Positions 16,352 through 52,847 of a stretch of 64,000 nucleotides of DNA are shown here, piece by piece (position 1 is the stretch's first letter; the number at the start of each line of letters is the position of its first letter). The position numbers were made by a program, and so were the translations under genes. The notes beneath the pieces were generated by a model. That model was not told where the DNA came from. It ran no database searches and saw only the letters and a program-made list of their open reading frames with translations. The stretch covers positions 991-64,990 of the forward strand of contig JAKSOD010000004.1 in assembly GCA_024405755.1 (NCBI GenBank). Direction: 5' to 3'. Origin of the DNA: Clostridia bacterium (GTDB lineage: Bacteria > Bacillota > Clostridia > Oscillospirales > CAG-272).

Positions 16352-17371
16352 ATGACAATTATCGTAACTGGCGGAGCCGGATTTATCGGTTCAAATTTCA
16401 TTTATTATCAACTCCGTGAGCATAAGGATGACAGAATTGTCTGTGTTGACAGCCTGACTTATGCCGGAAATCTTTCCACTCTTGCACAAGCAATGAAAAA
16501 TCCCGGATTCAGATTTGTCCGTGCGGATATTACCGACAGGGAAGCGATTTACCGGGTTTTTGAGGAGGAAAAGCCGGATGCAGTGGTGAATTTTGCTGCT
16601 GAGAGCCATGTTGACCGTTCGATCGAGTCTCCGGAAGTGTTCCTTCGCACGAATATTCTCGGAACAGAGGTAATGATGGATGCCTGCCGCAAGTACGGAA
16701 ATGTCAGGTATCATCAGGTGTCAACTGACGAGGTGTACGGGGATCTGCCTCTTGACCGCCCCGATCTTCTTTTCACCGAGACGACTCCCATACATACGAG
16801 CAGTCCTTATTCGGCATCCAAAGCATCTGCCGACCTTCTTGTGGGCGCATATTACCGTACCTACGGACTTCCCGTAACCATCTCACGCTGCTCAAATAAC
16901 TACGGACCTTACCATTTCCCCGAAAAACTGATCCCGTTGATGATCATCAATGCCCTTCACGACAAGCCTCTGCCCGTTTACGGTACGGGGGAGAACGTCC
17001 GCGACTGGCTATATGTTGAGGATCACTGTGCTGCCATTGATCTGGTACTTCGCAAGGGACGTATCGGAGAGGTCTACAATATCGGCGGACATAATGAAAT
17101 GAAGAATATTGATATCGTGAAACTGATCTGCAAGGCTCTCGGCAAGTCCGAAAGCCTGATCACCTACGTTTCCGACCGCAAGGGACACGATATGAGATAC
17201 GCCATTGATCCTACGAAGATCCATAATGAACTCGGCTGGCTTCCCGCCACGAAGTTTTCTGACGGTCTGCAAAAAACCGTTGAATGGTATCTTGAAAACC
17301 GTGAATGGTGGGAAACCATCATCTCCGGCGAATACAAGAATTACTACGAAAGAATGTACGGAAACAGATAA
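16352..17371 (+). CDS. rfbB: dTDP-glucose 4,6-dehydratase
   Basis: TGGAGFIGSNF, ...STDEVYGDL... and YSASKASADLL give the YxxxK catalytic motif. Length is 339 aa. Confidence 0.95.
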   Translation: MTIIVTGGAGFIGSNFIYYQLREHKDDRIVCVDSLTYAGNLSTLAQAMKNPGFRFVRADITDREAIYRVFEEEKPDAVVNFAAESHVDRSIESPEVFLRTNILGTEVMMDACRKYGNVRYHQVSTDEVYGDLPLDRPDLLFTETTPIHTSSPYSASKASADLLVGAYYRTYGLPVTISRCSNNYGPYHFPEKLIPLMIINALHDKPLPVYGTGENVRDWLYVEDHCAAIDLVLRKGRIGEVYNIGGHNEMKNIDIVKLICKALGKSESLITYVSDRKGHDMRYAIDPTKIHNELGWLPATKFSDGLQKTVEWYLENREWWETIISGEYKNYYERMYGNR

Positions 17372-35000: not shown

Positions 35001-37832
35001 ATGTCAAAAGATTACACAAGCACACTTAACCTGCCGAACACAAGTTTTGCCATGCGGGCAAATCTTCCCCAGAGAGAGCCTGAAATGCTTAAATACTGGG
35101 AAGATATCGATCTTTATCATAAGATGCTCGACGCGGCAGAAGGAAAGCCTCAGTTTATACTTCACGACGGCCCTCCTTTCTCCAACGGCGACATTCATAT
35201 GGGACACGCCCTCAACAAGATTTTAAAGGATATCATAAATAAATCCAAGGCTATGACCGGTTATCGCGTACCTTATGTACCCGGATGGGACAACCACGGT
35301 ATGCCTATCGAGAGTGCCATTATCAAAAAGAACAAACTTAATCGGAAGAATATGTCAATTTCAGAGTTCCGCGATGCCTGTCACAAGTTTGCTCAGGACT
35401 TTATTGACAGGCAGAGAACGGAATTCAAACGTCTTGGAATTACCGCTGATTGGGATCACCCTTATGCCACCATGCATCCTGCTTTTGAGGCACGCGAGGT
35501 CCGTGTTTTCGGGGAGATGTTCAAGAAGGGGTATATATACAAAGGACTCAAACCCGTTTATTGGTGCCCTCACGACGAGACCGCTCTTGCTGAGGCTGAA
35601 ATCGAATATTCCGATATCAAGTGCACCTCTATCTACGTGAAATTTGCCGTAAATGCCGACAACGAAAAGGTTAAGGAAAAACTTACCCCCGTCTGCGACC
35701 TCGGCAGAACTTATTTCATCATCTGGACCACCACCACGTGGACTCTTCCCGGAAACCTTGCGATCGCTCTTCATCCGGACGACGAATACTCCGTGCTGAA
35801 AGCATCTGACGGAAATTATTATATTGTTGCTTCCGCTCTTGCCGCAAAGACCATGGCAGCCGGAGGGGTTGAAAGCTTCGAGACAGTCATGACTGCCCCC
35901 GGACGCGAATTCGAGTATATGGCGGCGCGTCATCCTTTCCTTGACCGTGACAGCCTTATCGTCAATGCCGACTACGTCACTATGGACAGCGGTACCGGAT
36001 GCGTTCATACCGCCCCCGGTTTCGGTGCAGACGACTATCTTACCGGCAGAAGATACAATATGAACATCATAGTTCCGGTTGATGACCGCGGTTATCAGAC
36101 TGCTGACGCTGGGAAATATGCCGGTTTGTATTATGAAAAATCCAATGATATCATTCTTGCGGATATGAAGGAAAGCGGAGCTCTGTTTGCTTCCGAGAGT
36201 ATCGTTCACTCTTATCCTCATTGCTGGAGATGCAAGAATCCCATCATTTTCCGTGCCACTCCCCAGTGGTTCTGTTCGGTAGATGCCTTCAAGGAAGATG
36301 CCGTAAAGGCATGTGAGAATGTGACATGGCAGCCTGCATGGGGCGGAGAGCGCATTGTTCAGATGGTTCGTGAACGCGCAGACTGGTGCATTTCACGTCA
36401 GCGTCATTGGGGACTTCCCATTCCGGTTTTCTACTGCTCGGACTGCGGAAAACCCATTTGTAACGATTATACCATTGACCGTGTGTCGAAGGTCTTCGGC
36501 GAAAAGGGATCAAACGCATGGTTTGATATGGAGCCTTCCGGGATCCTCGGCGAGGATTATGTCTGCCCCTTCTGCGGAGGCAAGCATTTTACCCGTGAGA
36601 CCAATACACTCGACGGTTGGTTTGACTCCGGATCCACGCATTTTGCCGTTATTGAAAACGGCGGATACGATCCCGCATGGCTCAAAGACATTTCATGGCC
36701 TGCCGATCTTTATCTCGAAGGTGCAGACCAATACCGCGGCTGGTTCCAGTCTTCTCTGCTGACTGCCGTTGGAGCCAAGGGAGAGGGAGCACCGTTCAAG
36801 ACTGTTCTGACTCACGGTTGGACCGTTGACGGCGAGGGAAAGGCTATGCACAAATCCCTCGGCAACTCCATTGCTCCCGACGACATCATCAAGAAATACG
36901 GTGCGGATCTCGTTCGCCTTTGGGTGGCATCGAGTGATTACAGCGTTGACGTCCGATGCTCCGACAATATTTTCAAGCAGCTTTCCGAGACATACCGCAA
37001 GATCCGCAATACTGCCCGTATCATTATGGCTAACCTCGGAGATTTCGATCCCGATAAAGATGCCGTACCTGTGGAAAAAATGACTGAGATCGACCGTTGG
37101 GCTTTGTCACGCCTCAATGCTCTCATAAAGACAGTCCGCGGAGCGTACGATTCCTATCAGTTCCATATCGTTTATCACGCGATCAATAACTTCTGCACCG
37201 TTGATATGTCAAAACTTTATATTGATATCACCAAGGACAGAGTATATGTTGAAAAGGCGGATTCTCCCGCCCGCCGTTCTGCGCAGTCTGCCCTGTATCT
37301 CATCATCAATGCAATGACAAGACTCGTGTCTCCGCTGCTTGCATTCACCGGTGAGGAGATCTGGCAGGCAATGCCGCACGCTGCCGCCGATAACAAAATC
37401 AGCGTATTTCTCAACCCGATGCCCGATCCCGAGGCTGAATATGAGTTTGACGGTGTAGCGAAGTGGGAAGATCTGTTTGAACTCCGTGATGATGTTATGA
37501 AGGCACTCGAACTTGCCCGCGCCGAAAAACTTATCGGTAAGTCTCTTGATGCCAAAGTAACCGTATATACCGAAGATGCGGATACTCTTGCTCTGTTCGG
37601 CAAATTCACCGAAAGCGAACTTGCCGCTGTGTTTATTACAAGCGGAGCACATATAGTGAACGGCAAGGCTCCCGAGGGGGCGTACGTTCCCGAAGACGGG
37701 CGTCCTATCGGAGTCACGGTCGAGGGTGCCGACGGTCACCGCTGCGACCGCTGCTGGTGCTATTCCACCGATGGAGTGGAGAGCGAGGACGGTTTTATCT
37801 GCTCACGCTGCCACAATATCGTCGGTGACTGA
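35001..37832 (+). CDS. ileS: Isoleucine-tRNA ligase
   Basis: PPFSNGDIHMGHALNK (HIGH), KMHKSLGN (KMSKS) and a C-terminal zinc-finger cysteine cluster. Length is 943 aa. Confidence 0.97.
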   Translation: MSKDYTSTLNLPNTSFAMRANLPQREPEMLKYWEDIDLYHKMLDAAEGKPQFILHDGPPFSNGDIHMGHALNKILKDIINKSKAMTGYRVPYVPGWDNHGMPIESAIIKKNKLNRKNMSISEFRDACHKFAQDFIDRQRTEFKRLGITADWDHPYATMHPAFEAREVRVFGEMFKKGYIYKGLKPVYWCPHDETALAEAEIEYSDIKCTSIYVKFAVNADNEKVKEKLTPVCDLGRTYFIIWTTTTWTLPGNLAIALHPDDEYSVLKASDGNYYIVASALAAKTMAAGGVESFETVMTAPGREFEYMAARHPFLDRDSLIVNADYVTMDSGTGCVHTAPGFGADDYLTGRRYNMNIIVPVDDRGYQTADAGKYAGLYYEKSNDIILADMKESGALFASESIVHSYPHCWRCKNPIIFRATPQWFCSVDAFKEDAVKACENVTWQPAWGGERIVQMVRERADWCISRQRHWGLPIPVFYCSDCGKPICNDYTIDRVSKVFGEKGSNAWFDMEPSGILGEDYVCPFCGGKHFTRETNTLDGWFDSGSTHFAVIENGGYDPAWLKDISWPADLYLEGADQYRGWFQSSLLTAVGAKGEGAPFKTVLTHGWTVDGEGKAMHKSLGNSIAPDDIIKKYGADLVRLWVASSDYSVDVRCSDNIFKQLSETYRKIRNTARIIMANLGDFDPDKDAVPVEKMTEIDRWALSRLNALIKTVRGAYDSYQFHIVYHAINNFCTVDMSKLYIDITKDRVYVEKADSPARRSAQSALYLIINAMTRLVSPLLAFTGEEIWQAMPHAAADNKISVFLNPMPDPEAEYEFDGVAKWEDLFELRDDVMKALELARAEKLIGKSLDAKVTVYTEDADTLALFGKFTESELAAVFITSGAHIVNGKAPEGAYVPEDGRPIGVTVEGADGHRCDRCWCYSTDGVESEDGFICSRCHNIVGD

Positions 37833-37843
37833 GATAATTTGTC

Positions 37844-38023
37844 TTAAGGCAACACCGCACAATTCACGGCTGACGCCTTGACTGCGCATATGCTTGCATC
37901 TTTTTCGTCATACTTCACAAAATTTCGTTGAAATAGAGAAACTATTCCTTCCTCATTTTGTATCGTCTGACGAAAAATCTGACGGCGCATCTGCACCGCC
38001 AGAATTGTGCGGTATTGCCTTAA
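37844..38023 (+). mobile_element. MITE-like palindromic element A, copy 1 (180 bp)
   Basis: The 22-bp terminal inverted repeats are ttaaggcaacaccgcacaattc and gaattgtgcggtattgccttaa, with 1 mismatch. By eye, one base differs from the arms of the copy at 47454-47797 (plus the central insertion-site bases). It has no coding capacity. Confidence 0.75.
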
Positions 38024-38034
38024 TATTTTACTGC

Positions 38035-38237
38035 GGGACTGTTAAAAAAGTCAATACATTTTTACAGTCCCTCAAAAGCAGTGGTCAGGAGCCACTGCTT
38101 TGGGCGCGACATTGGCGTTTTTGCCTTGAAACAAGGATGGATTTTACTCTTTTTTTAGGGCAAAACGGCGGTGTTCTGCCGCCGAGCCAAATGTCGGCGG
38201 GGTGTTAAAAACTCGATAACGAGTTTTTAACACCCCC
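38035..38237 (+). repeat. Multi-hairpin repeat element B (about 200 bp), forward copy
   Basis: It holds four or five nested or serial hairpins and ends in the conserved terminator hairpin ggggtgttaaaaactcg-ataa-cgagtttttaacacccc. Its reverse complement recurs at 52645-52847. Confidence 0.8.
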
Positions 38238-38259
38238 ATTTTCAAGGATTGTTGCTGCT

Positions 38260-38796
38260 ATGCTTATCTGGTTGATTTTGCTCATAATTATTGTTTTCTG
38301 TGATCAACTGACAAAATGGTTGGCGATCATACTGCTCGAAGACTGCACACCTCATTATCTGATCGACGGCGTACTGCGCTTTTCCTATGTGGAAAACCGC
38401 GGTGCTGCTTTCGGTATGCTTGACGAACACCGCTGGGTGTTTCTCGTGCTGTCCACAGCGGCGATTATCGGTATATGCGTTTATGTCTGTCTTAAGCCGC
38501 CGAAGAGCAGGCTTGTAATGATATCGCTGACTCTCATTGCCGGCGGAGGGATCGGAAATATGATCGATCGGACTTTCCTCGGCTACGTTGTGGATTTCAT
38601 TGATTTCTGCGCATTCCCCAAACTATGGAAGTGGGTATTCAATGTTGCCGATTCCTGCATCTGCGTTGGTGTCGGACTGTTGATCCTCTACCTTATTATT
38701 GATACTGTGAAAGAAGTCAGAGCGGAAAAGGCAAATAAAAAAGTCTCACCCGACGAGATTGAGACACGGTCCGACGGGGATATAAAAAATGATTAA
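38260..38796 (+). CDS. lspA: Lipoprotein signal peptidase (signal peptidase II)
   Basis: DQLTKW...VENRGAAFGM...GGGIGNMIDR...GYVVDFI...FNVADS gives the conserved LspA Asp motifs. Confidence 0.93.
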   Translation: MLIWLILLIIIVFCDQLTKWLAIILLEDCTPHYLIDGVLRFSYVENRGAAFGMLDEHRWVFLVLSTAAIIGICVYVCLKPPKSRLVMISLTLIAGGGIGNMIDRTFLGYVVDFIDFCAFPKLWKWVFNVADSCICVGVGLLILYLIIDTVKEVRAEKANKKVSPDEIETRSDGDIKND

Positions 38797-39811
38797 AAAA
38801 AATGCGAACGAAGATGAAGAAGTAATCTGTGACGAGAGCAGCACCGCCGGAAAAATTTACTCATATACCGTGACAGCGGAACATGACGGCGAGCGGGTCG
38901 ATAACTTTGTGGGAATCGCATCCGCAGGAGAAGATTCCCCGCTTTCACGTTCTCAAGCGGCAAAAATGTGTCTTGACGGCAGAGTTTTTGTAAACAATAA
39001 AAATGTTCTCAAACGTACCGTGCTTCATGTCGGTGACGAGGTCAGAGTTGAACTTCCGCCTCCCGTGCCGGACCGTGCCGAGCCTGAGAATATTCCCATT
39101 GACGTGATTTACGAGGATAATGATCTTATTGTTGTGAACAAAGCTGCCGGGATGGTCGTTCATCCGTCGGCAGGACATCTGACGGGTACTCTTGTTTCTG
39201 CGCTGCTCTATCATTGCGGTGACAGTCTTTCGGGGATCGGAGGAGTGAGCCGACCGGGAATAGTACACCGGATCGACCGGGATACCACGGGACTGCTTGT
39301 TGTGGCAAAGAATGATATGGCTCACGTCTCCCTTGCGGCGCAGATCAAAGCACACACTGCCCGAAGAACGTACGTTGCGGTGATTATCGGCTCAATGAAA
39401 TCCGATTCGGGCGATATTGACGCTCCAATAGGGCGGCATCCCGTTGACAGACTCAAAATGGCGGTAGTTGCCGCTGACAGTGTGACATCACGTCCCGCAG
39501 TCACTCATTGGCGTATGCTTGAAGACTATTCGGGTTATTCTCTTGTTGAGTGCCGGCTTGAAACCGGAAGGACTCATCAGATTCGCGTCCATATGTCCCA
39601 TTCCGGTCATCCCGTGCTCGGTGATCCCCTTTACGGCGGAGATAAAGACAGATTTTGTCTGCGTCACCCTGATCTGATCGAGGGGCAGTGCCTGCATGCA
39701 AGACGGCTTGAATTCGATCATCCGAGAACAGGGGAGCGAATGTGCTTCGAATGTCCCGTTCCCGAAAAAATGCAGCGCGTAATTGATCTGCTGCGTCAGG
39801 GAACAGTGTAA
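38789..39811 (+). CDS. rluD: RluA-family 23S rRNA pseudouridine synthase (RluD-like)
   Basis: An S4-like N-terminus is followed by VVNKAAGMVVHPS, HRIDRDTTGLLVVAK and GRTHQIRVHM. Confidence 0.9.
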   Translation: MIKKNANEDEEVICDESSTAGKIYSYTVTAEHDGERVDNFVGIASAGEDSPLSRSQAAKMCLDGRVFVNNKNVLKRTVLHVGDEVRVELPPPVPDRAEPENIPIDVIYEDNDLIVVNKAAGMVVHPSAGHLTGTLVSALLYHCGDSLSGIGGVSRPGIVHRIDRDTTGLLVVAKNDMAHVSLAAQIKAHTARRTYVAVIIGSMKSDSGDIDAPIGRHPVDRLKMAVVAADSVTSRPAVTHWRMLEDYSGYSLVECRLETGRTHQIRVHMSHSGHPVLGDPLYGGDKDRFCLRHPDLIEGQCLHARRLEFDHPRTGERMCFECPVPEKMQRVIDLLRQGTV

Positions 39812-39842
39812 AATACTAAAAAGCAAATTAACGGAGAGTTCA

Positions 39843-40703
39843 ATGGAAGATTTCAGCGATATACTTCTTGTGACCGATCTTGACGGCACATTTTTCGGAG
39901 AAAAATCGTCAATAGTGCCGCGAAACATGGAGGCAATAGACTATTTCAAAGCCGGAGGCGGACTGTTTACGATTGCGACGGGACGGATGCACTGCAATAT
40001 AAGTCGTCCTCTGCCTATGGTGAAGGAACTTATCAATGCTCCGATGATATCCTGCAACGGCGCGCTGATGTTTGACATAAGGACCGGCAAGACCATAAAT
40101 GAAAGACTGATCCCCGCAAAACTCGGTATGGATATTGTGGAATATTCCGTATCTCATTACGACGATGTCGGAGCGAGGGTTTCCGCGCCGGACGGATTTT
40201 TGTGTTCGGATGAAATGGTGGCAGCCTGTCCGAGACTTGCAAAGGATCTGAAAACCTGCGATCCGTGGATGCTCAATATGGTTCCTTTTGAGAGATGGAA
40301 CGAATTCAGCTGGTATAAGATCATAATCCGCGGTGATTCCGACAGACTTGATTTACTTCGTGCAGAACTTGAAAAAAACTTCGGTGAAGCGGTCGAGATC
40401 AGTAAGTCCGGTGCTACTTTCCTTGAAGTGCAGTCTGAGGGAACGAACAAGTCCGTGCAGCTTGACGCTTTGCGTGAATACTGCGAGAAGGAAAAAGGCA
40501 GGAAACTTACCGTGTGGTATTCCGGAGACTACGAAAACGATCTTGAAATATTGAAGATCGCCGATGTCGCCGTCTGTCCCGGGAATGCCCTTGACTGTGT
40601 AAAAGAGGTCTGCGACTTGTGTCTGTGCCGCAATACGGAAGGACTTATGGCGGATATTATTGAAACTATTGCAGCGCGGAAAGGCGGAAAATGCAGATTC
40701 TGA
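39843..40703 (+). CDS. Cof-type HAD-IIB phosphatase
   Basis: LLVTDLDGTFFG (motif I), ...IATGR..., ...NKSVQLDAL... and ...SGDYENDLEIL fit the family. The ATG is at 39843. Confidence 0.8.
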   Translation: MEDFSDILLVTDLDGTFFGEKSSIVPRNMEAIDYFKAGGGLFTIATGRMHCNISRPLPMVKELINAPMISCNGALMFDIRTGKTINERLIPAKLGMDIVEYSVSHYDDVGARVSAPDGFLCSDEMVAACPRLAKDLKTCDPWMLNMVPFERWNEFSWYKIIIRGDSDRLDLLRAELEKNFGEAVEISKSGATFLEVQSEGTNKSVQLDALREYCEKEKGRKLTVWYSGDYENDLEILKIADVAVCPGNALDCVKEVCDLCLCRNTEGLMADIIETIAARKGGKCRF

Positions 40704-40708
40704 AAAAA

Positions 40709-40733
40709 ACGGCGGACAAAAGCCGCCGTTTTT
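40709..40733 (+). terminator. Intrinsic terminator of the Cof-type phosphatase gene
   Basis: acggcgg-acaaaa-gccgccgt is followed by ttttt. Confidence 0.75.
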
Positions 40734-40740
40734 GAGCAAA

Positions 40741-40780
40741 GGTGGTGTAAAAAGCTCGGGTACAAGTTTTTTACACCACC
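40741..40780. terminator. Conserved-family hairpin (imperfect copy) at the 3' end of the convergent DUF4364 gene
   Basis: The sequence is ggtggtgtaaaaagctcgggtacaagttttttacaccacc. It lies 5 nt from the minus-strand stop at 40786-40788. Confidence 0.6.
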
Positions 40781-40785
40781 TTCTT

Positions 40786-41337
40786 TTAATCAAACATAAA
40801 GTTTACGTTTCCTGCCATAAGTGCGGTAAAACCGCGGTAGATCACCTCGGGACGGCTGTCAAAGTTGCTCTTCATGCGTTCCGCCCGGTTGAAGCTGTCA
40901 ACTTTCAGCGTGGACTCGAAGATGACGGATTTTTTTTCAAGCAGGCGGCAGCGGACGTAACATTCTCCGGTTGCCTTGTCAATTACTTCGATATCACAGT
41001 CGGCGGTTATACCGCGGCGTTGGAAGTCAAGATAACGGAATGCGGCTGAAAGAGATTTATCAAGAATTGATGTAAGAACATCTGATTTGAGTTCCCGTGC
41101 CACAACTCTGCCCTGATCGCTGACGGTGTACAGCGTGTTCCCATCCTCAACGACCGGCTCGATCAGTCCGCCGTCGAGCATTTCGTTGAAACTCTCGGCA
41201 AAGTCAAGATACATTACGTAATCGGTCTGCATCACGATATCGTTTATGGTACAGAGTTCAAGGGGATAATTAATATTTTCAAGCAGGTAAAGAACAAATA
41301 TTTTTACGGCACGTTTGCTGCCGATAGGTGACGACAT
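40786..41337 (-). CDS. DUF4364-family protein (PadR-like putative regulator)
   Basis: The ORF is 183 aa. The N-terminus KIFVLYLLENINYPLELCTINDIVMQTDYVMYLDFAESFNEMLDGGLIE recalls clostridial DUF4364 proteins. This call is from memory only. Confidence 0.5.
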   Translation of the reverse strand: MSSPIGSKRAVKIFVLYLLENINYPLELCTINDIVMQTDYVMYLDFAESFNEMLDGGLIEPVVEDGNTLYTVSDQGRVVARELKSDVLTSILDKSLSAAFRYLDFQRRGITADCDIEVIDKATGECYVRCRLLEKKSVIFESTLKVDSFNRAERMKSNFDSRPEVIYRGFTALMAGNVNFMFD

Positions 41338-41478
41338 GATGACCTCCTTGGAACATAAGACGAAAAAAGATATATGTAAATATTATCACAAAATTTGAAA
41401 TTCTTCAATAGTTTTGTTTGCCTTTTTGCGAAATTTGTGGTATTATATAGTCAATACCAATCGAAAGGACGAAAAACA

Positions 41479-42684
41479 ATGATAAATATCGCATTACTCG
41501 GCTTCGGGACCGTCGGAGGAGGCGTCGCTGAAGTCATTACCAAAAATGAAAAGATCATATCCGCACGTCTCGGAGATAAGATCAATATCAAATATATCCT
41601 TGATCTGCGCGAATTTCCGTCAAGTCCCTTTGCTGACCGCATAGTGCACGATTTCAACACCATACTTAACGACCCTGAGGTCAGTATTGTGGCGGAAATG
41701 ATGGGCGGAGTTCATCCCGCCGCAGATTTCAGCCGTGCCGCCCTTGATGCCGGTAAGAGCGTTGTCACCTCAAACAAGGCAGTCGTTGCAGCCTGCGGTG
41801 ACGAACTTCTTGCCCTTGCCCGCAAACGCGGAGTACGCTATCTGTTTGAAGCAAGCGTCGGCGGCGGTATACCGATCATCAGACCTCTGACAGATGACCT
41901 CGCTTCCAATGAGATAAACTCCGTATGCGGAATTCTCAACGGAACTACCAACTTCATTTTAAACGAAATGTCCGAAAACGGCAGTGATTTTGACTCCGTG
42001 CTGAAACAGGCGCAGGAAAAGGGATATGCCGAGGCTGATCCTACCGCCGATGTTGACGGATTTGATGCCGCTCGTAAGATCATAATTCTTGCCGCTCTTG
42101 CATACGGCAAACTTATGCCCCTAGAATCGATCAGCATCCGCGGTATCCGCAGCGTGACGCGTGCGGACGTCACTGTTGCCGAACAACTCGGCTGCCGGCT
42201 GAAACTGATTGCAGATGTCAGACTTGATGCCGACGGCAGGATCCTTGCCACCGTTGCTCCTCGTTTCGTGCGTACTTCCTGTCCGCTTGCCTATATTGAC
42301 GGAGTGTTCAACGGAGTCCTTGTTCGCGGAAATATGGTAGGAAACGCAATGTTCTACGGACCCGGTGCCGGGAAACTCCCCACCGCAAGTGCTGTGGTAG
42401 CCGATATTATCGACGCCGCCGAGCGTAAATTTGCGGCACCTCCGAGACTTGACTGGGTTCGTGCGGAAGAAAAGGATATATCTCCCGTTGATCCCGCCAA
42501 CGAAGGCGAGTATTTCTGTCATATCTTTGATAATGCCGCCGCTGCCATTGCAGCCGCAAATGCAGCCGGTAATACCGCAAAGAGTGTGGATGCGGCAGAA
42601 CTCGGTGAGAACGGCGTGTGGGCAGTGCTTTCCAACAAGAGCGAGCTTGCGGGCAGCGTCCGCCGTTACGCTTTCTTTGAGTGA
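41479..42684 (+). CDS. hom: Homoserine dehydrogenase
   Basis: IALLGFGTVGGGV..., VTSNKAV..., YLFEASVGGGIPII..., GILNGTTNFIL... and GYAEADPT.DV.G.DAA.K. The ATG is at 41479. Confidence 0.9.
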   Translation: MINIALLGFGTVGGGVAEVITKNEKIISARLGDKINIKYILDLREFPSSPFADRIVHDFNTILNDPEVSIVAEMMGGVHPAADFSRAALDAGKSVVTSNKAVVAACGDELLALARKRGVRYLFEASVGGGIPIIRPLTDDLASNEINSVCGILNGTTNFILNEMSENGSDFDSVLKQAQEKGYAEADPTADVDGFDAARKIIILAALAYGKLMPLESISIRGIRSVTRADVTVAEQLGCRLKLIADVRLDADGRILATVAPRFVRTSCPLAYIDGVFNGVLVRGNMVGNAMFYGPGAGKLPTASAVVADIIDAAERKFAAPPRLDWVRAEEKDISPVDPANEGEYFCHIFDNAAAAIAAANAAGNTAKSVDAAELGENGVWAVLSNKSELAGSVRRYAFFE

Positions 42685-42690
42685 TCGTTT

Positions 42691-43842
42691 ATGAATGATG
42701 AAGTCAGCCGTCCTGCGGGACGGAGGATAAAAGTAACACATATATTGACGGATTCAAATGTGGGAGGAGCCGGGAATTACCTGTATTACCTTCTCGGTGC
42801 CTCCGACAGAGAAAAATTTGACTTTTCCGTGATTCTGCCGGCCGGAGCGAAAATTACGGAAAAAATCGAAAGTCTCGGCATTCCGGTAAGGCACGTGGAG
42901 TGCCCCTGCTTTGCAGACAGATCATATGCACCGCGTGCGGAGAAAGAATTGCGCAGGCTGATCAACGGGGAAAATCCGGATGTCGTTCATACGCACGCAT
43001 CTCTGACCGGACGTATTGCCGCGGCAAAGTCGGGAGTCACCGTTAAGATCATGACCAAGCACTGTTCAGATATGCCTCCTGAGTATCAGACATTTTTCCC
43101 GATAAAGCAGATAGCGCGGCGGCAGTTCAGACGTACAGTTGACGGAGCTGTGGCTACCGACGAGCAGGCGCGTGATGCACTTGTCGCCTGCGGTATGCCG
43201 CGTGAGATGATCACCGTGATACGCAACGGCGCTGCACCTCTATGTCAGATCGGCGAGGAAGAGAAAGATGCTTTACGCAAAAGTCTCGGGATCCCGTGCG
43301 GAACTTTCGTTGTAGGAAGTTTTTCCCGTCTTGAACCGGTGAAAGCTCATGAAATACTCCTTCGCGCCGCCGCTGTATGTATGCGGTTCGTGTCGAACAT
43401 TTACTTTCTGATTGTCGGAGACGGAAGCAGGCGTGAGGAACTCGAAGCCTTGGCAGTGCGTTACGGTATATCGGAGAATGTAAGATTCTGCGGTTTCGTG
43501 TCCGATATCGCACCATATATGTCGCTCTGCACCGTAAATGTCAATACTTCCGTGGGGACGGAAACGTCGAATCTGGCAATCAGCGAGGGATTGAGTCTCG
43601 GCGTGATTCCCGTGGTTTCCGATTTCGGAGGAAATCCTCGGTCTGCCGCCGGATGCGGACTTGTTTATAAGGATAATGATCCGGCACTTCTTGCAGATGC
43701 TGTTTTGTCTCTCTGCCGCGATCCTGAGCAGGTAAGGTTTTTATCGGAAGCGGCAAAACGGGAATTTCATTCTCACCGTACCGCAGATAGAATGGCGCGT
43801 GAGACAGAAAAAGTTTACCTTAATCTTTTACGGCAAAAATAA
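42691..43842 (+). CDS. Glycosyltransferase family 4 (GT-B, group 1)
   Basis: An N-terminal GGAGNY motif is followed by a C-terminal ...GDGSRREELE...F.GFV.D..PYM.....V.TS..TE...LAISEGLSLG.P.V.S..GG (the EX7E region). Confidence 0.8.
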   Translation: MNDEVSRPAGRRIKVTHILTDSNVGGAGNYLYYLLGASDREKFDFSVILPAGAKITEKIESLGIPVRHVECPCFADRSYAPRAEKELRRLINGENPDVVHTHASLTGRIAAAKSGVTVKIMTKHCSDMPPEYQTFFPIKQIARRQFRRTVDGAVATDEQARDALVACGMPREMITVIRNGAAPLCQIGEEEKDALRKSLGIPCGTFVVGSFSRLEPVKAHEILLRAAAVCMRFVSNIYFLIVGDGSRREELEALAVRYGISENVRFCGFVSDIAPYMSLCTVNVNTSVGTETSNLAISEGLSLGVIPVVSDFGGNPRSAAGCGLVYKDNDPALLADAVLSLCRDPEQVRFLSEAAKREFHSHRTADRMARETEKVYLNLLRQK

Positions 43843-43852
43843 ATTCTGAAAT

Positions 43853-43885
43853 CACCCCGGAACGGAAAAATGCAGTTCCGGGGTG
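43853..43885. terminator. Bidirectional terminator between the GT4 gene and the convergent symporter gene
   Basis: caccccggaac-ggaaaaatgca-gttccggggtg. Confidence 0.7.
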
Positions 43886-43891
43886 TCTTCT

Positions 43892-45265
43892 TTATTCACC
43901 GTGAATCCGTTTCTTTTCTCCGAAATATGCCCGTGTTTCCTCGGTGACCTCCCGGTTTCCGAGCAGGAGTACAGTGACATTGATGACTGTCATAAGTCCC
44001 ATTGAAAGATCGGCGACTCCCCATACGGAACCCGGTGAAATGATCGCTCCCGCAAGAGCACAGGCTGAGAATACGGGAACAAAACACAGACGTGTCAGCC
44101 TGCGGTCTGCATGCGGAGTCAGATATGCAAGGCATTCAAGTCCGTAATAACTTTGACAGATTACAGTGGCGGCACCGAACATAAGCACGGCAATACAGAC
44201 TGCATAATTGCTCCATGTGCCGAGAACGGCGGAATATGAACTGATCGTCATCATAACGGAGTTATCTCCCCATACGAAAACTTTATCGTAACTGACAAGA
44301 ATCACCGCCGCTGTCATGGCGCAAAGGATCACGGTATCCACGATAACCTCCACAATGCCGAGAAACCCTTGTTCGGCGGGCGAGGACACGTCGGATGACG
44401 AATGGGCAAGCGGCGACGTTCCCGCCCCCGCTTCGTTGGTAATAAGTCCACGCATTGTGCCGTATCGGAGAGAGCGGGAGAGCAAAAAACCTGAAATACC
44501 GCCGAGGATTCCTCCGGATGACCCGAAATCAAAGGCGTCGGTGACGACAAGACGAATCACGATTGGCAGGTCGGCGGCACGAAGGATAAGGACAGCCGCG
44601 GACATCACGAAAAAACCGAGGCTCATCAGGGGAACAAGGCGCGCGGTAAATGAACTGATACGTGAAAGACCTCCGGTGCAGACGGCGGCGGCAAGAACGG
44701 CAACGGCAGCACCGATAATCAGCCGACTGATTCCAAGCACACCTTCAAGCGCACCCGCAACGGCATTGACCTGCACCACGCAGCCCATAGAGAGGGAATT
44801 GACAAGGCAAAGAGCGGCAAATGCCGCAGCAGCGGCAGCTCCCGCACGCGGCAGTCCCCGTGATGACAGAATATCCTTAATGTAGTACGGAGTACCGCCC
44901 TCGGATTTCCCGTCAACTGTTCTTCTGTGACGCAGCGCAAGGACTGTCTCAGCGTATTTCAGTGCCGACGCCGCTACGGCGGAGATCCACATCCAGAAAA
45001 TTGCTCCCGGTCCTCCGAGATTGATCGCCGCGGATACTCCTACGATATTTCCGACTCCGAGGGTTCCCGCAAGTGCAAGGCAGAGAGCGCGGCGCGGTGA
45101 GATGCCGCCCGGAGTCCGCGGTTTTCCGGAGAGAAGCGGGCGCAGTACGGCTGCGGGATGTCGGAACCAGAAAAAATTTAGCTTTACGGCAAAGAAGATC
45201 CCCGATGGAATTAGCATCAGGGGAACGAGTACCCCCGTGACGTATCTGTTCAGAAATTCAAGCAT
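43892..45265 (-). CDS. Alanine/glycine:cation symporter (AGCS) family transporter
   Basis: It has about 11 TM segments. ...ALAGTLGVGNIVGVSAAI..GGPGAIFWMWI.A....ALKYAE..LA...R and ...NEAG.GTSP.AH are typical AGCS motifs. Confidence 0.85.
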   Translation of the reverse strand: MLEFLNRYVTGVLVPLMLIPSGIFFAVKLNFFWFRHPAAVLRPLLSGKPRTPGGISPRRALCLALAGTLGVGNIVGVSAAINLGGPGAIFWMWISAVAASALKYAETVLALRHRRTVDGKSEGGTPYYIKDILSSRGLPRAGAAAAAAFAALCLVNSLSMGCVVQVNAVAGALEGVLGISRLIIGAAVAVLAAAVCTGGLSRISSFTARLVPLMSLGFFVMSAAVLILRAADLPIVIRLVVTDAFDFGSSGGILGGISGFLLSRSLRYGTMRGLITNEAGAGTSPLAHSSSDVSSPAEQGFLGIVEVIVDTVILCAMTAAVILVSYDKVFVWGDNSVMMTISSYSAVLGTWSNYAVCIAVLMFGAATVICQSYYGLECLAYLTPHADRRLTRLCFVPVFSACALAGAIISPGSVWGVADLSMGLMTVINVTVLLLGNREVTEETRAYFGEKKRIHGE

Positions 45266-45432
45266 TTTTCCCCCGATCCCGCCCGATAAGCGTACAGTCT
45301 TTTATATGAATCTATTCCGCACCCCGGTTAGCAATTCCGAATTCTTCTGCCAAAAAAATTGTAAACTAAATGTTAATTCGATATTAAACCTCTTGATTTT
45401 TTCCAATAATGTAGTACAATGTAAATCGTAGG

Positions 45433-45459
45433 TTAGCACTCGAGCAAAATGAGTGCCAA
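45433..45459 (+). promoter_or_regulatory. CIRCE operator (HrcA binding site) upstream of groES
   Basis: TTAGCACTC-gagcaaaat-GAGTGCCAA compares with the consensus TTAGCACTC-N9-GAGTGCTAA. It follows a TTGATT...TACAAT promoter-like pair at about 45393-45420. Confidence 0.9.
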
Positions 45460-45505
45460 AAAATAAGAAATAAAGACGAAAGTCGTTCATTTAAGGAGGA
45501 AAATC

Positions 45506-45793
45506 ATGAACATCAAACCCTTGGCAGACAGAGTTGTCATCAAACTCGTCGAAGCAGAGGAGAAGACCGAGAGCGGCATCATCCTTACCGCGAAGGCTCA
45601 GGAAAAACCCCAGATCGCCGAAGTAGTCGCAGTTGGCCCCGGAAAAGCCAACGACGACGGAGTCCGTACTCCCGTTGAAGTCAAAGTCGGCGATAAGATC
45701 ATTGCCGCAAAATACGCCGGAACCGAAGTCAAGATTGACGGCGTTGAATATACCATCATCTCCGAGAAAGACGTTCTCGCTATCATTAAATAA
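45506..45793 (+). CDS. groES: Co-chaperonin GroES
   Basis: MNIKPLADRVVIK......T.SGI.L...A.EKPQ.AEVVAVGPG. Length is 95 aa. Confidence 0.97.
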   Translation: MNIKPLADRVVIKLVEAEEKTESGIILTAKAQEKPQIAEVVAVGPGKANDDGVRTPVEVKVGDKIIAAKYAGTEVKIDGVEYTIISEKDVLAIIK

Positions 45794-45808
45794 TTCGGAA
45801 GGAAGTAA

Positions 45809-47452
<1,644 letters not shown>

Positions 47453-47453
47453 T

Positions 47454-47797
47454 TTAAGGCAACACCGCACAATTCACGGCTGACGCCTTGACTGCGCATA
47501 TGCTTGCATCTTTTCCGTCATACTTCACAAAATTTCGTTGAAATAGATTAGGGAACCTCTAAATATTCATCGCGGACGGGATCGCGGTGCTTTATTCCGT
47601 CATACTTCACAAAAATCCTTCGTGGTGGGGCAACAACACGTGCGGATTTTTGTTTCGTCTGACGAAAAAATCCCTCGCGCCCCATCTCGCACTGAATTTT
47701 TAGAGGTTCCCTTAACTATTCCTTCCTCATTTTGTATCGTCTGACGAAAAATCTGACGGCGCATCTGCACCGCCAGAATTGTGCGGTATTGCCTTAA
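47454..47797 (+). mobile_element. MITE-like element A, copy 2, interrupted by nested element C
   Basis: It has the same 22-bp terminal inverted repeats as copy 1. By eye the left arm differs from copy 1 at one base and the right arm at none. It starts 2 nt after the groEL stop. Confidence 0.8.
47548..47714 (+). mobile_element. Nested palindromic element C (167 bp) inserted in the centre of element A
   Basis: The terminal inverted repeats are ttagggaacctctaaatattca and tgaatttttagaggttccctta, with 2 mismatches. It carries its own TTCCGTCATACTTCACAAAA...CGTCTGACGAAAAAA core. The junctions fit a TA duplication when compared with the uninterrupted copy. Confidence 0.7.
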
Positions 47798-47814
47798 ACC
47801 TGCAAATATAATTA

Positions 47815-47846
47815 TGGGACCGGATCACGCGAGTGATCCGGTCCCA
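47815..47846. terminator. Bidirectional terminator between the groEL locus and the convergent epimerase gene
   Basis: tgggaccggatcac-gcga-gtgatccggtccca forms a 14-bp perfect stem. Confidence 0.75.
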
Positions 47847-47874
47847 TATCATATTACAGTATTACAGTCTCATA

Positions 47875-48798
47875 TTACAGTATTTCCGTCTCGCATAAGA
47901 AGGTGAATTCATCTCCGGGATGCAAAAGATTTGTGCCCGGTCTTGTCATGGCATTGTCGGGGAGGGTACCGTCGGGAGCATCAAAAGACGGCAGTCCGCG
48001 CCACGGCTCAATACAGATAAACGGCGCATCGGTGTGTGCAGGCTGCCAGAATCCGAATGTTGCGGCATCGGGACAGCTTATCCTTACCGAATGCGGCGTT
48101 TTTTTATTTTGAGATGAACTTGATTCAGCAAATTCGGCGGATTCCAGCGTCACCGAGGTGACATTCGTCAGAATGATCGCATCGTGATCAAAGAGAGAAT
48201 TATCAATGTCAATATATCTGTCATCCCGAAGGGGATAAGGCTCCGCCTCACCGGACATAAAGAAGTTATCGGACAGCAGAAGTCTGCGCGGCGGCTCGGA
48301 ATATTCGAGTTTCAGCCGTGATTTATCCGACGGAAGAATAAATCCCGGGTGCAGTCCCACCGAAAACGGAAGAATTACGCTGTCGGTGTTTTTTACAGTG
48401 ACACGGGAGATCATTTGATTTCCGTCAAGCCGGAATGAGCGGCAGAGATCAAACCGGAAAGGATAAGATTCAGCGGTCGTTGGGTTATCCCGGAAGAAAA
48501 AACTGACCGAATGATTTTCTTTATCGTTTTCGATATGTTCCGGTGACAGAAAACGGGCGAAACCGTGGATCCCGAGTCGGAATTCCCGTTCGCGGCAGAT
48601 CCACGAACCTCCGCGAAGCCTGCCGACTGTCGGAAAAAGCAGCGGAGCATGTTCGCCCCAGTATTTTCCGTCTCCGTTCCAGAGAAGTTCCATGACGTTT
48701 TCCCTGTCATGCACCGAAAGTGATATCGGCTCGCCTCCCGTTTGACGAAAAACGGCTCGCAGTATGCCGTTATCAAGAACATATTGTTTTTCGGTCAT
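47875..48798 (-). CDS. Aldose 1-epimerase family protein
   Basis: ...LFPTVGRL...GIHGFAR...VGLHPGF...ICIEPW fits the mutarotase-like fold. The ATG at 48798 follows a GGAGGG RBS. Confidence 0.7.
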   Translation of the reverse strand: MTEKQYVLDNGILRAVFRQTGGEPISLSVHDRENVMELLWNGDGKYWGEHAPLLFPTVGRLRGGSWICREREFRLGIHGFARFLSPEHIENDKENHSVSFFFRDNPTTAESYPFRFDLCRSFRLDGNQMISRVTVKNTDSVILPFSVGLHPGFILPSDKSRLKLEYSEPPRRLLLSDNFFMSGEAEPYPLRDDRYIDIDNSLFDHDAIILTNVTSVTLESAEFAESSSSQNKKTPHSVRISCPDAATFGFWQPAHTDAPFICIEPWRGLPSFDAPDGTLPDNAMTRPGTNLLHPGDEFTFLCETEIL

Positions 48799-52618: not shown

Positions 52619-52644
52619 TAAGAGTAGATTTTTGAAAAAACAAG

Positions 52645-52847
52645 GGGGTGTTAAAAAACTCGTTATCGAGTTTTTTAACACCCCGTCGACATTTGGCTCG
52701 GCGGCTGAACACCGCCGTTTTGCCCTAATAAAAGAGTAAAATCCATCCTCGTTTCAAGGCAAAAACGCCAATGTCGCGTCAAAAGCAGCGGCTCCTGACC
52801 ACTGCTTTTGAGTGGCTGTAAAAAAGTATTGACTTTTTTACAGCCAC
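52645..52847 (-). repeat. Multi-hairpin repeat element B, inverted copy
   Basis: By eye its reverse complement aligns along the full length of 38035-38237 with roughly a dozen differences. Two of these are compensatory pairs in the outer hairpin. Confidence 0.8.

Follow-up and report, generated by a model that had tools for sequence, protein, structure and literature searches.

A fold-back element downstream of ileS in a Clostridia bacterium is very probably a young copy of a TTAA-inserting IS5-type MITE

Between ileS and lspA in a Clostridia bacterium of the order Oscillospirales (CAG-272) lies a palindromic, non-coding stretch of 180 nt, and a nearly identical one follows groEL. The locus raises the question of what such an element is and why it stands directly behind two strongly expressed genes. 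An earlier note, made from the letters of the window (the whole stretch of 64,000 nt that was analysed, from contig JAKSOD010000004.1), described it as MITE-like, argued for recent mobilisation or gene conversion and proposed that it may target terminators or be retained because it acts as one. The analysis reported here indicates that the hairpin behind ileS is very probably a young copy of an IS5-type MITE inserted at TTAA, and that it is an ordinary passenger insertion rather than a terminator-seeking one. The family is referred to as MITE A, and the features of the locus are as follows (window coordinates).

35001-37832, plus strand: ileS, isoleucine--tRNA ligase, 943 aa (NCBIfam TIGR00392, 933 bits, cut-off 621)
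37844-37847, unstranded: left TTAA of the target-site duplication, placed by the flanks of full-length copies and a paralogous empty site with a single TTAA
37848-38019, plus strand: MITE A proper, 172 bp, non-coding, near-consensus and multi-copy in the genome
37848-37865, plus strand: left terminal inverted repeat (TIR) GGCAACACCGCACAATTC, the first 14 nt of which (GGCAACACCGCACA) are also found at the left end of the insertion sequence L282
37901-37977, unstranded: central core hairpin TTTTTCGTCA...TGACGAAAAA, 73% homologous to the core of MITE B
37973-38003, minus strand: terminator-like motif, an 11-bp GC-rich hairpin (38003-37978) followed by TTTTT (37977-37973), from a pattern scan and the minus-strand fold
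38002-38019, minus strand: right TIR, reverse complement GGCAATACCGCACAATTC, recognised by its inverted-repeat match to the left end
38020-38023, unstranded: right TTAA of the target-site duplication, from the flanks of full-length copies and the paralogous empty site
38035-38242, plus strand: repeat C, about 205 bp, multi-hairpin, unrelated to A (BLAST against its own genome)
38260-38796, plus strand: lspA, signal peptidase II (NCBIfam TIGR00077, 111 bits, cut-off 74)
38789-39811: rluD (NCBIfam)
45815-47452: groEL (NCBIfam)
47454-47797, plus strand: second window copy of A, 1 nt past the groEL stop, split centrally by MITE B (47551-47711)

The description of a 180-bp non-coding element with 22-bp TIRs, one mismatch and an inner hairpin is accurate in sequence and coordinates. 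The element begins 11 nt past the ileS stop and occupies 37844-38023 when both TTAA copies are counted; the TTAA at either edge is the duplicated target site, and the 172 bp in between are the MITE proper. With TTAA included, the two ends are TTAAGGCAACACCGCACAATTC (37844-37865) and GAATTGTGCGGTATTGCCTTAA (38002-38023), each of 22 nt, and the TIR length can be given as 18-22 nt with one mismatch. The terminal 22-mer occurs four times in the window, at the two elements, and not once in 100 shuffles. The arms of the inner hairpin (37901-37936 and 37942-37977) are 72% complementary. A is shorter than 500 bp and has no transposase ORF; the sole ORF over it, of 104 aa (37894-38208, plus strand), runs across both MITE A and repeat C and is a repeat artefact, not to be annotated as a gene. 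The single-base difference that had been seen by eye between the arms of the ileS and groEL copies was confirmed, positions 1-94 being 98.9% identical (one base differs) and positions 97-180 being 100% identical.

The copy-number check by BLASTN was carried out on the 2.12-Mb draft genome (187 contigs, GC 47.6%, 97% complete) and returned 21 full-length copies of A, with TTAA duplications and empty paralogous sites. Twenty of the 21 show 94-100% pairwise identity (mean 96.9%) and depart from their consensus at 1-5 positions, the ileS copy at a single one. The genome also holds three A::B composites, in which A carries a nested second MITE, five mini forms of about 60-79 bp and about 16 fragments of A at contig ends. 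Altogether, at least 35 copies of A lie on more than 25 contigs, and the terminal repeat has 78 matches at three mismatches or fewer. These numbers, the TTAA duplication that an empty site reveals and an IS5-family insertion sequence (IS) with corresponding ends found elsewhere bear out the MITE reading and recent mobility. Mini derivatives of 37-79 bp comprise little beyond the two terminal repeats, retain their TTAA flanks and are frequent in other genera too (G000:C57:15301-15379, C126:5629-5707, C126:6636-6714, C111:37130-37203, C155:19392-19453 and L143 5486-5538).

The flanks of the copies point to insertion at a defined target. TTAA stands on both sides of 19 of 20 full-length copies and TAAA on both sides of the remaining one, with unrelated sequence farther out. 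To look for empty sites, the two flanks of each copy were joined and searched against the genome. One copy, at C127:10050, has inserted into the terminal palindrome of a different repeat, and a paralogue of this site with 97% identity (C127:6889-6966) reads ...CGAACTTT-TTAA-CACCCC..., with a single TTAA; three empty paralogues were recovered for the copy at C121:15036. Because the empty paralogues carry a single tetranucleotide, insertion adds a 172-bp element together with a 4-bp duplication. No conspecific with an empty ileS site was found, an exact look-up of the LspA sequence returning the source assembly only and a metagenome scan with LspA giving 58% identity as its best match. When placed on a rough, repeat-masked ORF map, the 27 A-type copies and the 14 copies of B all fall between genes; 71% of the 4263 TTAA sites of the genome fall inside predicted genes.

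The window was correctly said to hold no transposase, and the search of the whole genome likewise returned no cognate one. A genus-wide search with DDE_Tnp_1 led to a 1.3-kb IS in the congener G004 (L267 540-1839), the ends of which, GGGCATCTCTAAAAAC, resemble those of B. Its transposase, used as a query over 301 genomes of the same family, retrieved three more IS (L276, L282 and L283). The search for an IS with TIRs matching those of A was thereby answered by L282, which comes from a different genus of this bacterial family, and by L283. L282 (G137:C74:1-1141) is an IS5-family IS of 1.13 kb with the arrangement TTAA-GGCAACACCGCACAG...TGTGCGGTGTTTCC-TTAA and a 325-aa ORF, and positions 1-18 of the A query (TTAA and the 14-mer following it) are identical to its left end in BLAST; L283 (G208:C159) has the ends GGCAACACCGCACAACC. 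The two proteins, of 325 aa each, carry DUF772 (PF05598) and DDE_Tnp_1 (PF01609), score 332 bits with the model NF033581 'IS5 family transposase', above its cut-off of 140, and share 45-50% identity with plasmid-borne transposases annotated as IS5-family. The ends of the partner IS begin with GG, and the duplications are of 4 bp: TTAA for A and L282, CAAG for L267 and TNNA for B. The likeness of A to L282 and L283 is limited to the terminal 18-19 nt; from the sequences, A appears not to be a simple internal-deletion derivative of these copies. With L282 and L283 there are candidate autonomous partners for the family, which offers a clean example of TTAA-specific IS5-type insertion. A piggyBac origin, which the TTAA target might suggest, was rejected, since the partner transposase belongs to the IS5 family.

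Within the genome itself, no pair of A-type ends 0.6-3 kb apart was present and the profile PF13340 had no match. A homologue of the A-type transposase was found neither in the draft assembly (97% complete, 187 contigs) nor in 37 congeners; in the search of these congeners for partner transposases, the B-type IS of G004 was the only exception. Two other transposases of the genome were rejected as partners of A. The sole DDE_Tnp_1 match, on contig C41, is IS4-like with ends of its own, and the transposase on contig C178 is a truncated DUF772 protein that lacks matching ends. The whole 1738-bp contig C41 (G000:C41; L039) is a complete IS4-like IS with a 535-aa DDE_Tnp_1 transposase and ends CCTAAATTCCC..., unrelated to the MITEs. 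The ORFs beside solitary ends in congeners and species-representative genomes were also rejected as transposases, being ThiC, a GH5 cellulase, MatE and a SpoU methylase; a further one resembles an LD-carboxypeptidase by eye from its sequence.

MITE B, which splits the groEL copy of A, provides a parallel case. It is 161 bp long, has about 17 copies and shows TNNA duplications in 13 of 16 of them. Where it lies inside A on contigs C106 and C2 it is flanked by a TTCA duplication, the intact copies of A representing the empty site. In L276 (G313:C6) the ends read GGTAACCTCTAAAAATTC and GGGAACCTCTAAAAATTG; of the 18 nt of the end of B, 17 are matched by the right-hand one. The transposase of L276 is 54% identical to that of the G004 copy (G004:C350); both are of the IS5 family and B-type. 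L276 itself (1408-2662) is flanked by an 8-bp direct repeat, TAAACAAT, compared with 4 bp for the MITEs and L267. The central hairpins of A and B are 73% identical; their ends differ and their cognate transposases are only about 33% identical, a comparison which suggests that A and B share, or have exchanged, a core module. One element (G000:C140:6671-6850) is a hybrid with A-type ends and a core 85% identical to that of B, with 76% identity to A overall.

The following course of events can be proposed for the ileS copy. An IS5-family (IS5-group) DDE transposase that recognises the 18-nt ends GGCAAYACCGCACAATTC would move A in trans, and cut-and-paste transposition with a 4-nt staggered cut at TTAA, followed by repair, would duplicate TTAA on both sides. 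During a recent burst of the family in this species, a copy would have landed by chance on a TTAA 11 nt past ileS, in an originally short spacer, and would have survived because insertion at a 3' end or between cistrons is tolerated. Any transcript reading through from ileS into lspA would gain from it a highly stable hairpin of 180 nt; on the sense strand it would bring no terminator. Since no cognate transposase was found in the assembly or in 37 congeners, we infer mobilisation here by an IS5-type transposase, which has presumably been lost from this genome or has escaped assembly. The copy is most likely neutral.

Several known systems resemble MITE A in part. With IS5 of Escherichia coli and the IS5 group the partner IS share a length of 1.13 kb, one transposase of about 325 aa with DUF772 and DDE_Tnp_1 that is recognised by NF033581, ends starting with GG and a 4-bp duplication of the A/T-rich palindromic type; IS5 itself duplicates YTAR. 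By analogy with IS5-group MITEs, A, which has no ORF, would depend on a transposase supplied in trans. It differs from IS5 in that its target is almost invariably TTAA, its ends are specific to Oscillospiraceae and Ruminococcus-type Clostridia, its partner transposase shares no more than 45-50% identity with named IS5-family proteins and the partner IS was not found in the same genome. BrickBuilt, MITEPgRS and MITE239 of Porphyromonas gingivalis and ATR of Neisseria have been classed as 'type II' IS5-related MITEs, which have only their TIRs in common with IS5-family IS, hold no transposase remnant, are intergenic and reach tens of copies (PMC4596501). A is like them in sharing only the terminal 18-19 nt with an IS, in being intergenic and in occurring in tens of copies. 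However, their ends (GAGACC...) are different and their duplications are variable or unclear, whereas that of A is a clean TTAA, and the whole of A is a fold-back kept by compensatory changes.

The Correia elements of Neisseria and the ERIC/IRU elements of enterobacteria are likewise fold-back MITEs, about 100-180 bp long; transcribed together with the genes beside them, they form long RNA hairpins and affect mRNA processing and stability, and sometimes termination. By analogy, the ileS copy may work in the same way at the RNA level. Neither group has any sequence relationship to A. Correia elements duplicate TA and have no known parent IS; A, in contrast, duplicates TTAA and has ends that match an IS5-family IS. 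A Neisseria/Correia origin was rejected, as DUS repeats are absent and the ends and the target duplication differ.

The fold of A gives rise to the first of three alternative explanations. According to this one, the family would be primarily a structured nucleic acid of one strand, either a cis-acting RNA hairpin or small RNA or a substrate of single-strand transposition or replication, and its transposon features would be secondary; we consider it unlikely. RNA of A in the ileS sense is predicted to fold at -66.9 kcal/mol (z = -8.4 against shuffles) and the complementary strand at -86.3 kcal/mol (z = -10.8). Covariation was assessed in an alignment of 23 family members from different genera. 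The plus-strand consensus has 44 predicted pairs, of which 26 have changed on both sides (-27.1 kcal/mol); 93% of the cells are paired compared with 36-46% in slid controls, and the observed covariation was reached by none of 500 shuffles. In helices 4-6, which form the core hairpin, 16 of 20 pairs show changes on both sides across genera. The whole-length fold-back of A is kept by compensatory changes across genera. In favour of a single functional strand, the minus-strand consensus has more pairs (58, of which 35 are compensatory) at -68.9 kcal/mol, and it is the minus strand that folds more stably in each of the 23 members and each of the genome's own 21 copies, by about 22 kcal/mol on average. 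Wobble cells number 124 on the minus strand versus 16 on the plus strand, and 26 versus 12 when the plus-derived structure is used.

Against this, the 23 members are related by descent and do not represent 23 independent events, and shuffled minus strands also fold better, by 8.6 kcal/mol, which indicates an effect of composition. Palindromes can, moreover, be homogenised by template switching without selection. The elements have no orientation bias with respect to host genes, window positions 37000-48500 had no Rfam match at E <= 1 and no promoter-like site was detected inside A by scanning, and the spread of the family is already accounted for by target duplications, shared IS ends, nesting and bursts. 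The better folding of the minus strand is therefore best treated as an unexplained lead rather than a finding. That this Clostridia-wide family has been selected to fold on one strand, here the strand complementary to the ileS sense, where compensatory and G.U/G.T changes preserve pairing across genera, is a doubtful proposition. If true, it would imply that an IS5-type element passes through a strand-specific RNA or a single-stranded-DNA stage, for example a processed or terminating RNA hairpin, or mobilisation that depends on a hairpin, neither of which is predicted by double-stranded DDE cut-and-paste. A compensatory fold-back with a preference for one strand is unexpected for a plain double-stranded cut-and-paste parasite and presents a small puzzle on how MITEs are maintained.

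An IS5-type passenger insertion also explains the position of the element better than a role in termination, an alternative to which we attach little probability. Under the latter, A would have been aimed at terminators or recruited as one, ending ileS and groEL transcription or attenuating read-through into lspA, and would have been kept for this reason. The idea draws on the two window copies, which follow strongly expressed genes in the same orientation at 1-11 nt past the stop, on the closed 22-bp outer stem at ileS with its U-rich flank (UAUUUUA) and on the presence of a GC hairpin with T5 on one strand of A. That strand, however, is the one opposite to ileS and groEL. A pattern scan found no hairpin with a U-tract on the ileS-sense strand within A, the plus-strand terminator-like matches being weak and outside A; the motif on the opposite strand is the only one within the element and, as a pattern match, a candidate only.

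The contexts of the copies likewise speak against targeting. Among 23 copies of A with two known neighbours, eight are divergent, five convergent and ten tandem, proportions close to those of 964 intergenic TTAA sites taken as a control (convergent, 22% observed and 22% expected; divergent, 35% and 23%). Four of the 23 lie 11 nt or less from a gene 3' end, against an expectation of 12.3% (p = 0.31). The note had pointed out the common orientation of the two window copies after highly expressed genes, which is correct for these two and does not hold as a rule: taking as reference the gene with its 3' end towards the element, six copies in this genome have the same orientation and eight the opposite one, the counts in other genomes are 7 versus 8 (23 elements), and the two sets together give 13 versus 16 with respect to the upstream gene. 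That the two window copies agree is most likely coincidence. Congeners, in addition, manage without A in their ileS-lspA spacers. The proposal of terminator targeting or retention thus finds no support.

The remaining alternative, that segmental duplication or gene conversion of the 3' regions produced the two window copies without transposition, takes up their near-identity at a distance of 9.6 kb but is refuted by the dispersal of 35 or more copies over more than 25 contigs, with unrelated flanks, TTAA duplications and empty paralogous sites; with 21 full-length copies and their derivatives in place of only two ancestral ones, its probability is practically nil.

Beyond this genome, the distribution of the IS5-type MITE is patchy and burst-like. 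A-type ends are present in 19 of 38 species of the genus, with large expansions in three congeners (73, 85 and 94 end matches), and the full elements of congeners are only 66-76% identical to the ileS copy. Among species-representative genomes, ends were found in Ruminococcus (R. callidus ATCC 27760 and R. flavefaciens FD-1), Gemmiger, Acutalibacter and Agathobaculum and in many Oscillospiraceae MAGs. The searchable literature, queried with the end sequence and for MITEs in Ruminococcus, yielded no description of the family. Full-length relatives with 71-75% identity were also seen on five uncultured phage contigs from human faeces (MT835489.1, positions 16847-17026; MT835480.1; MT835572.1; MT835885.1; MT836531.1), and phages may be a vehicle by which the family moves between species. 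Its importance lies chiefly in annotation and assembly: draft genomes of gut Oscillospiraceae and Ruminococcus are broken up by it, many contigs here ending in A; it creates spurious ORFs and inflates operon spacers such as that between ileS and lspA; and its long hairpins are easily taken for regulatory RNAs.

The ileS-lspA spacer itself had been called conserved, which does not apply. It measures 427 nt and consists of 11 nt, the 180 nt of A, a further 11 nt, repeat C (approximately 38035-38242) and 17 nt; in ten congeners the spacers are 53-138 nt long and bear no similarity to A. The spacer is not conserved; it has been enlarged by the two insertions, A and C, and the spacers of congeners are unrelated. 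BLAST of repeat C against its own genome finds about 20 copies at 87-94% identity; the repeat has relatives in congeners, a second site in the window at about 52644-52840 (minus strand) and no Rfam match. It forms several hairpins and has TIR-like ends, GGGGCTGTTAAAAAAG... and ...CGAGTTTTTTAACACCCC. In most congeners (L043-L052) a GC-rich hairpin, CGGCTCGGCGG...CCGCCGAGCCG, lies about 20 nt before the lspA start, and a similar motif sits inside repeat C here. The 45-nt terminal palindrome of repeat C is also present by itself at about 30 sites, in most cases with a T-run behind it, and looks like a terminator; at this locus it stops 23 nt short of the lspA start codon.
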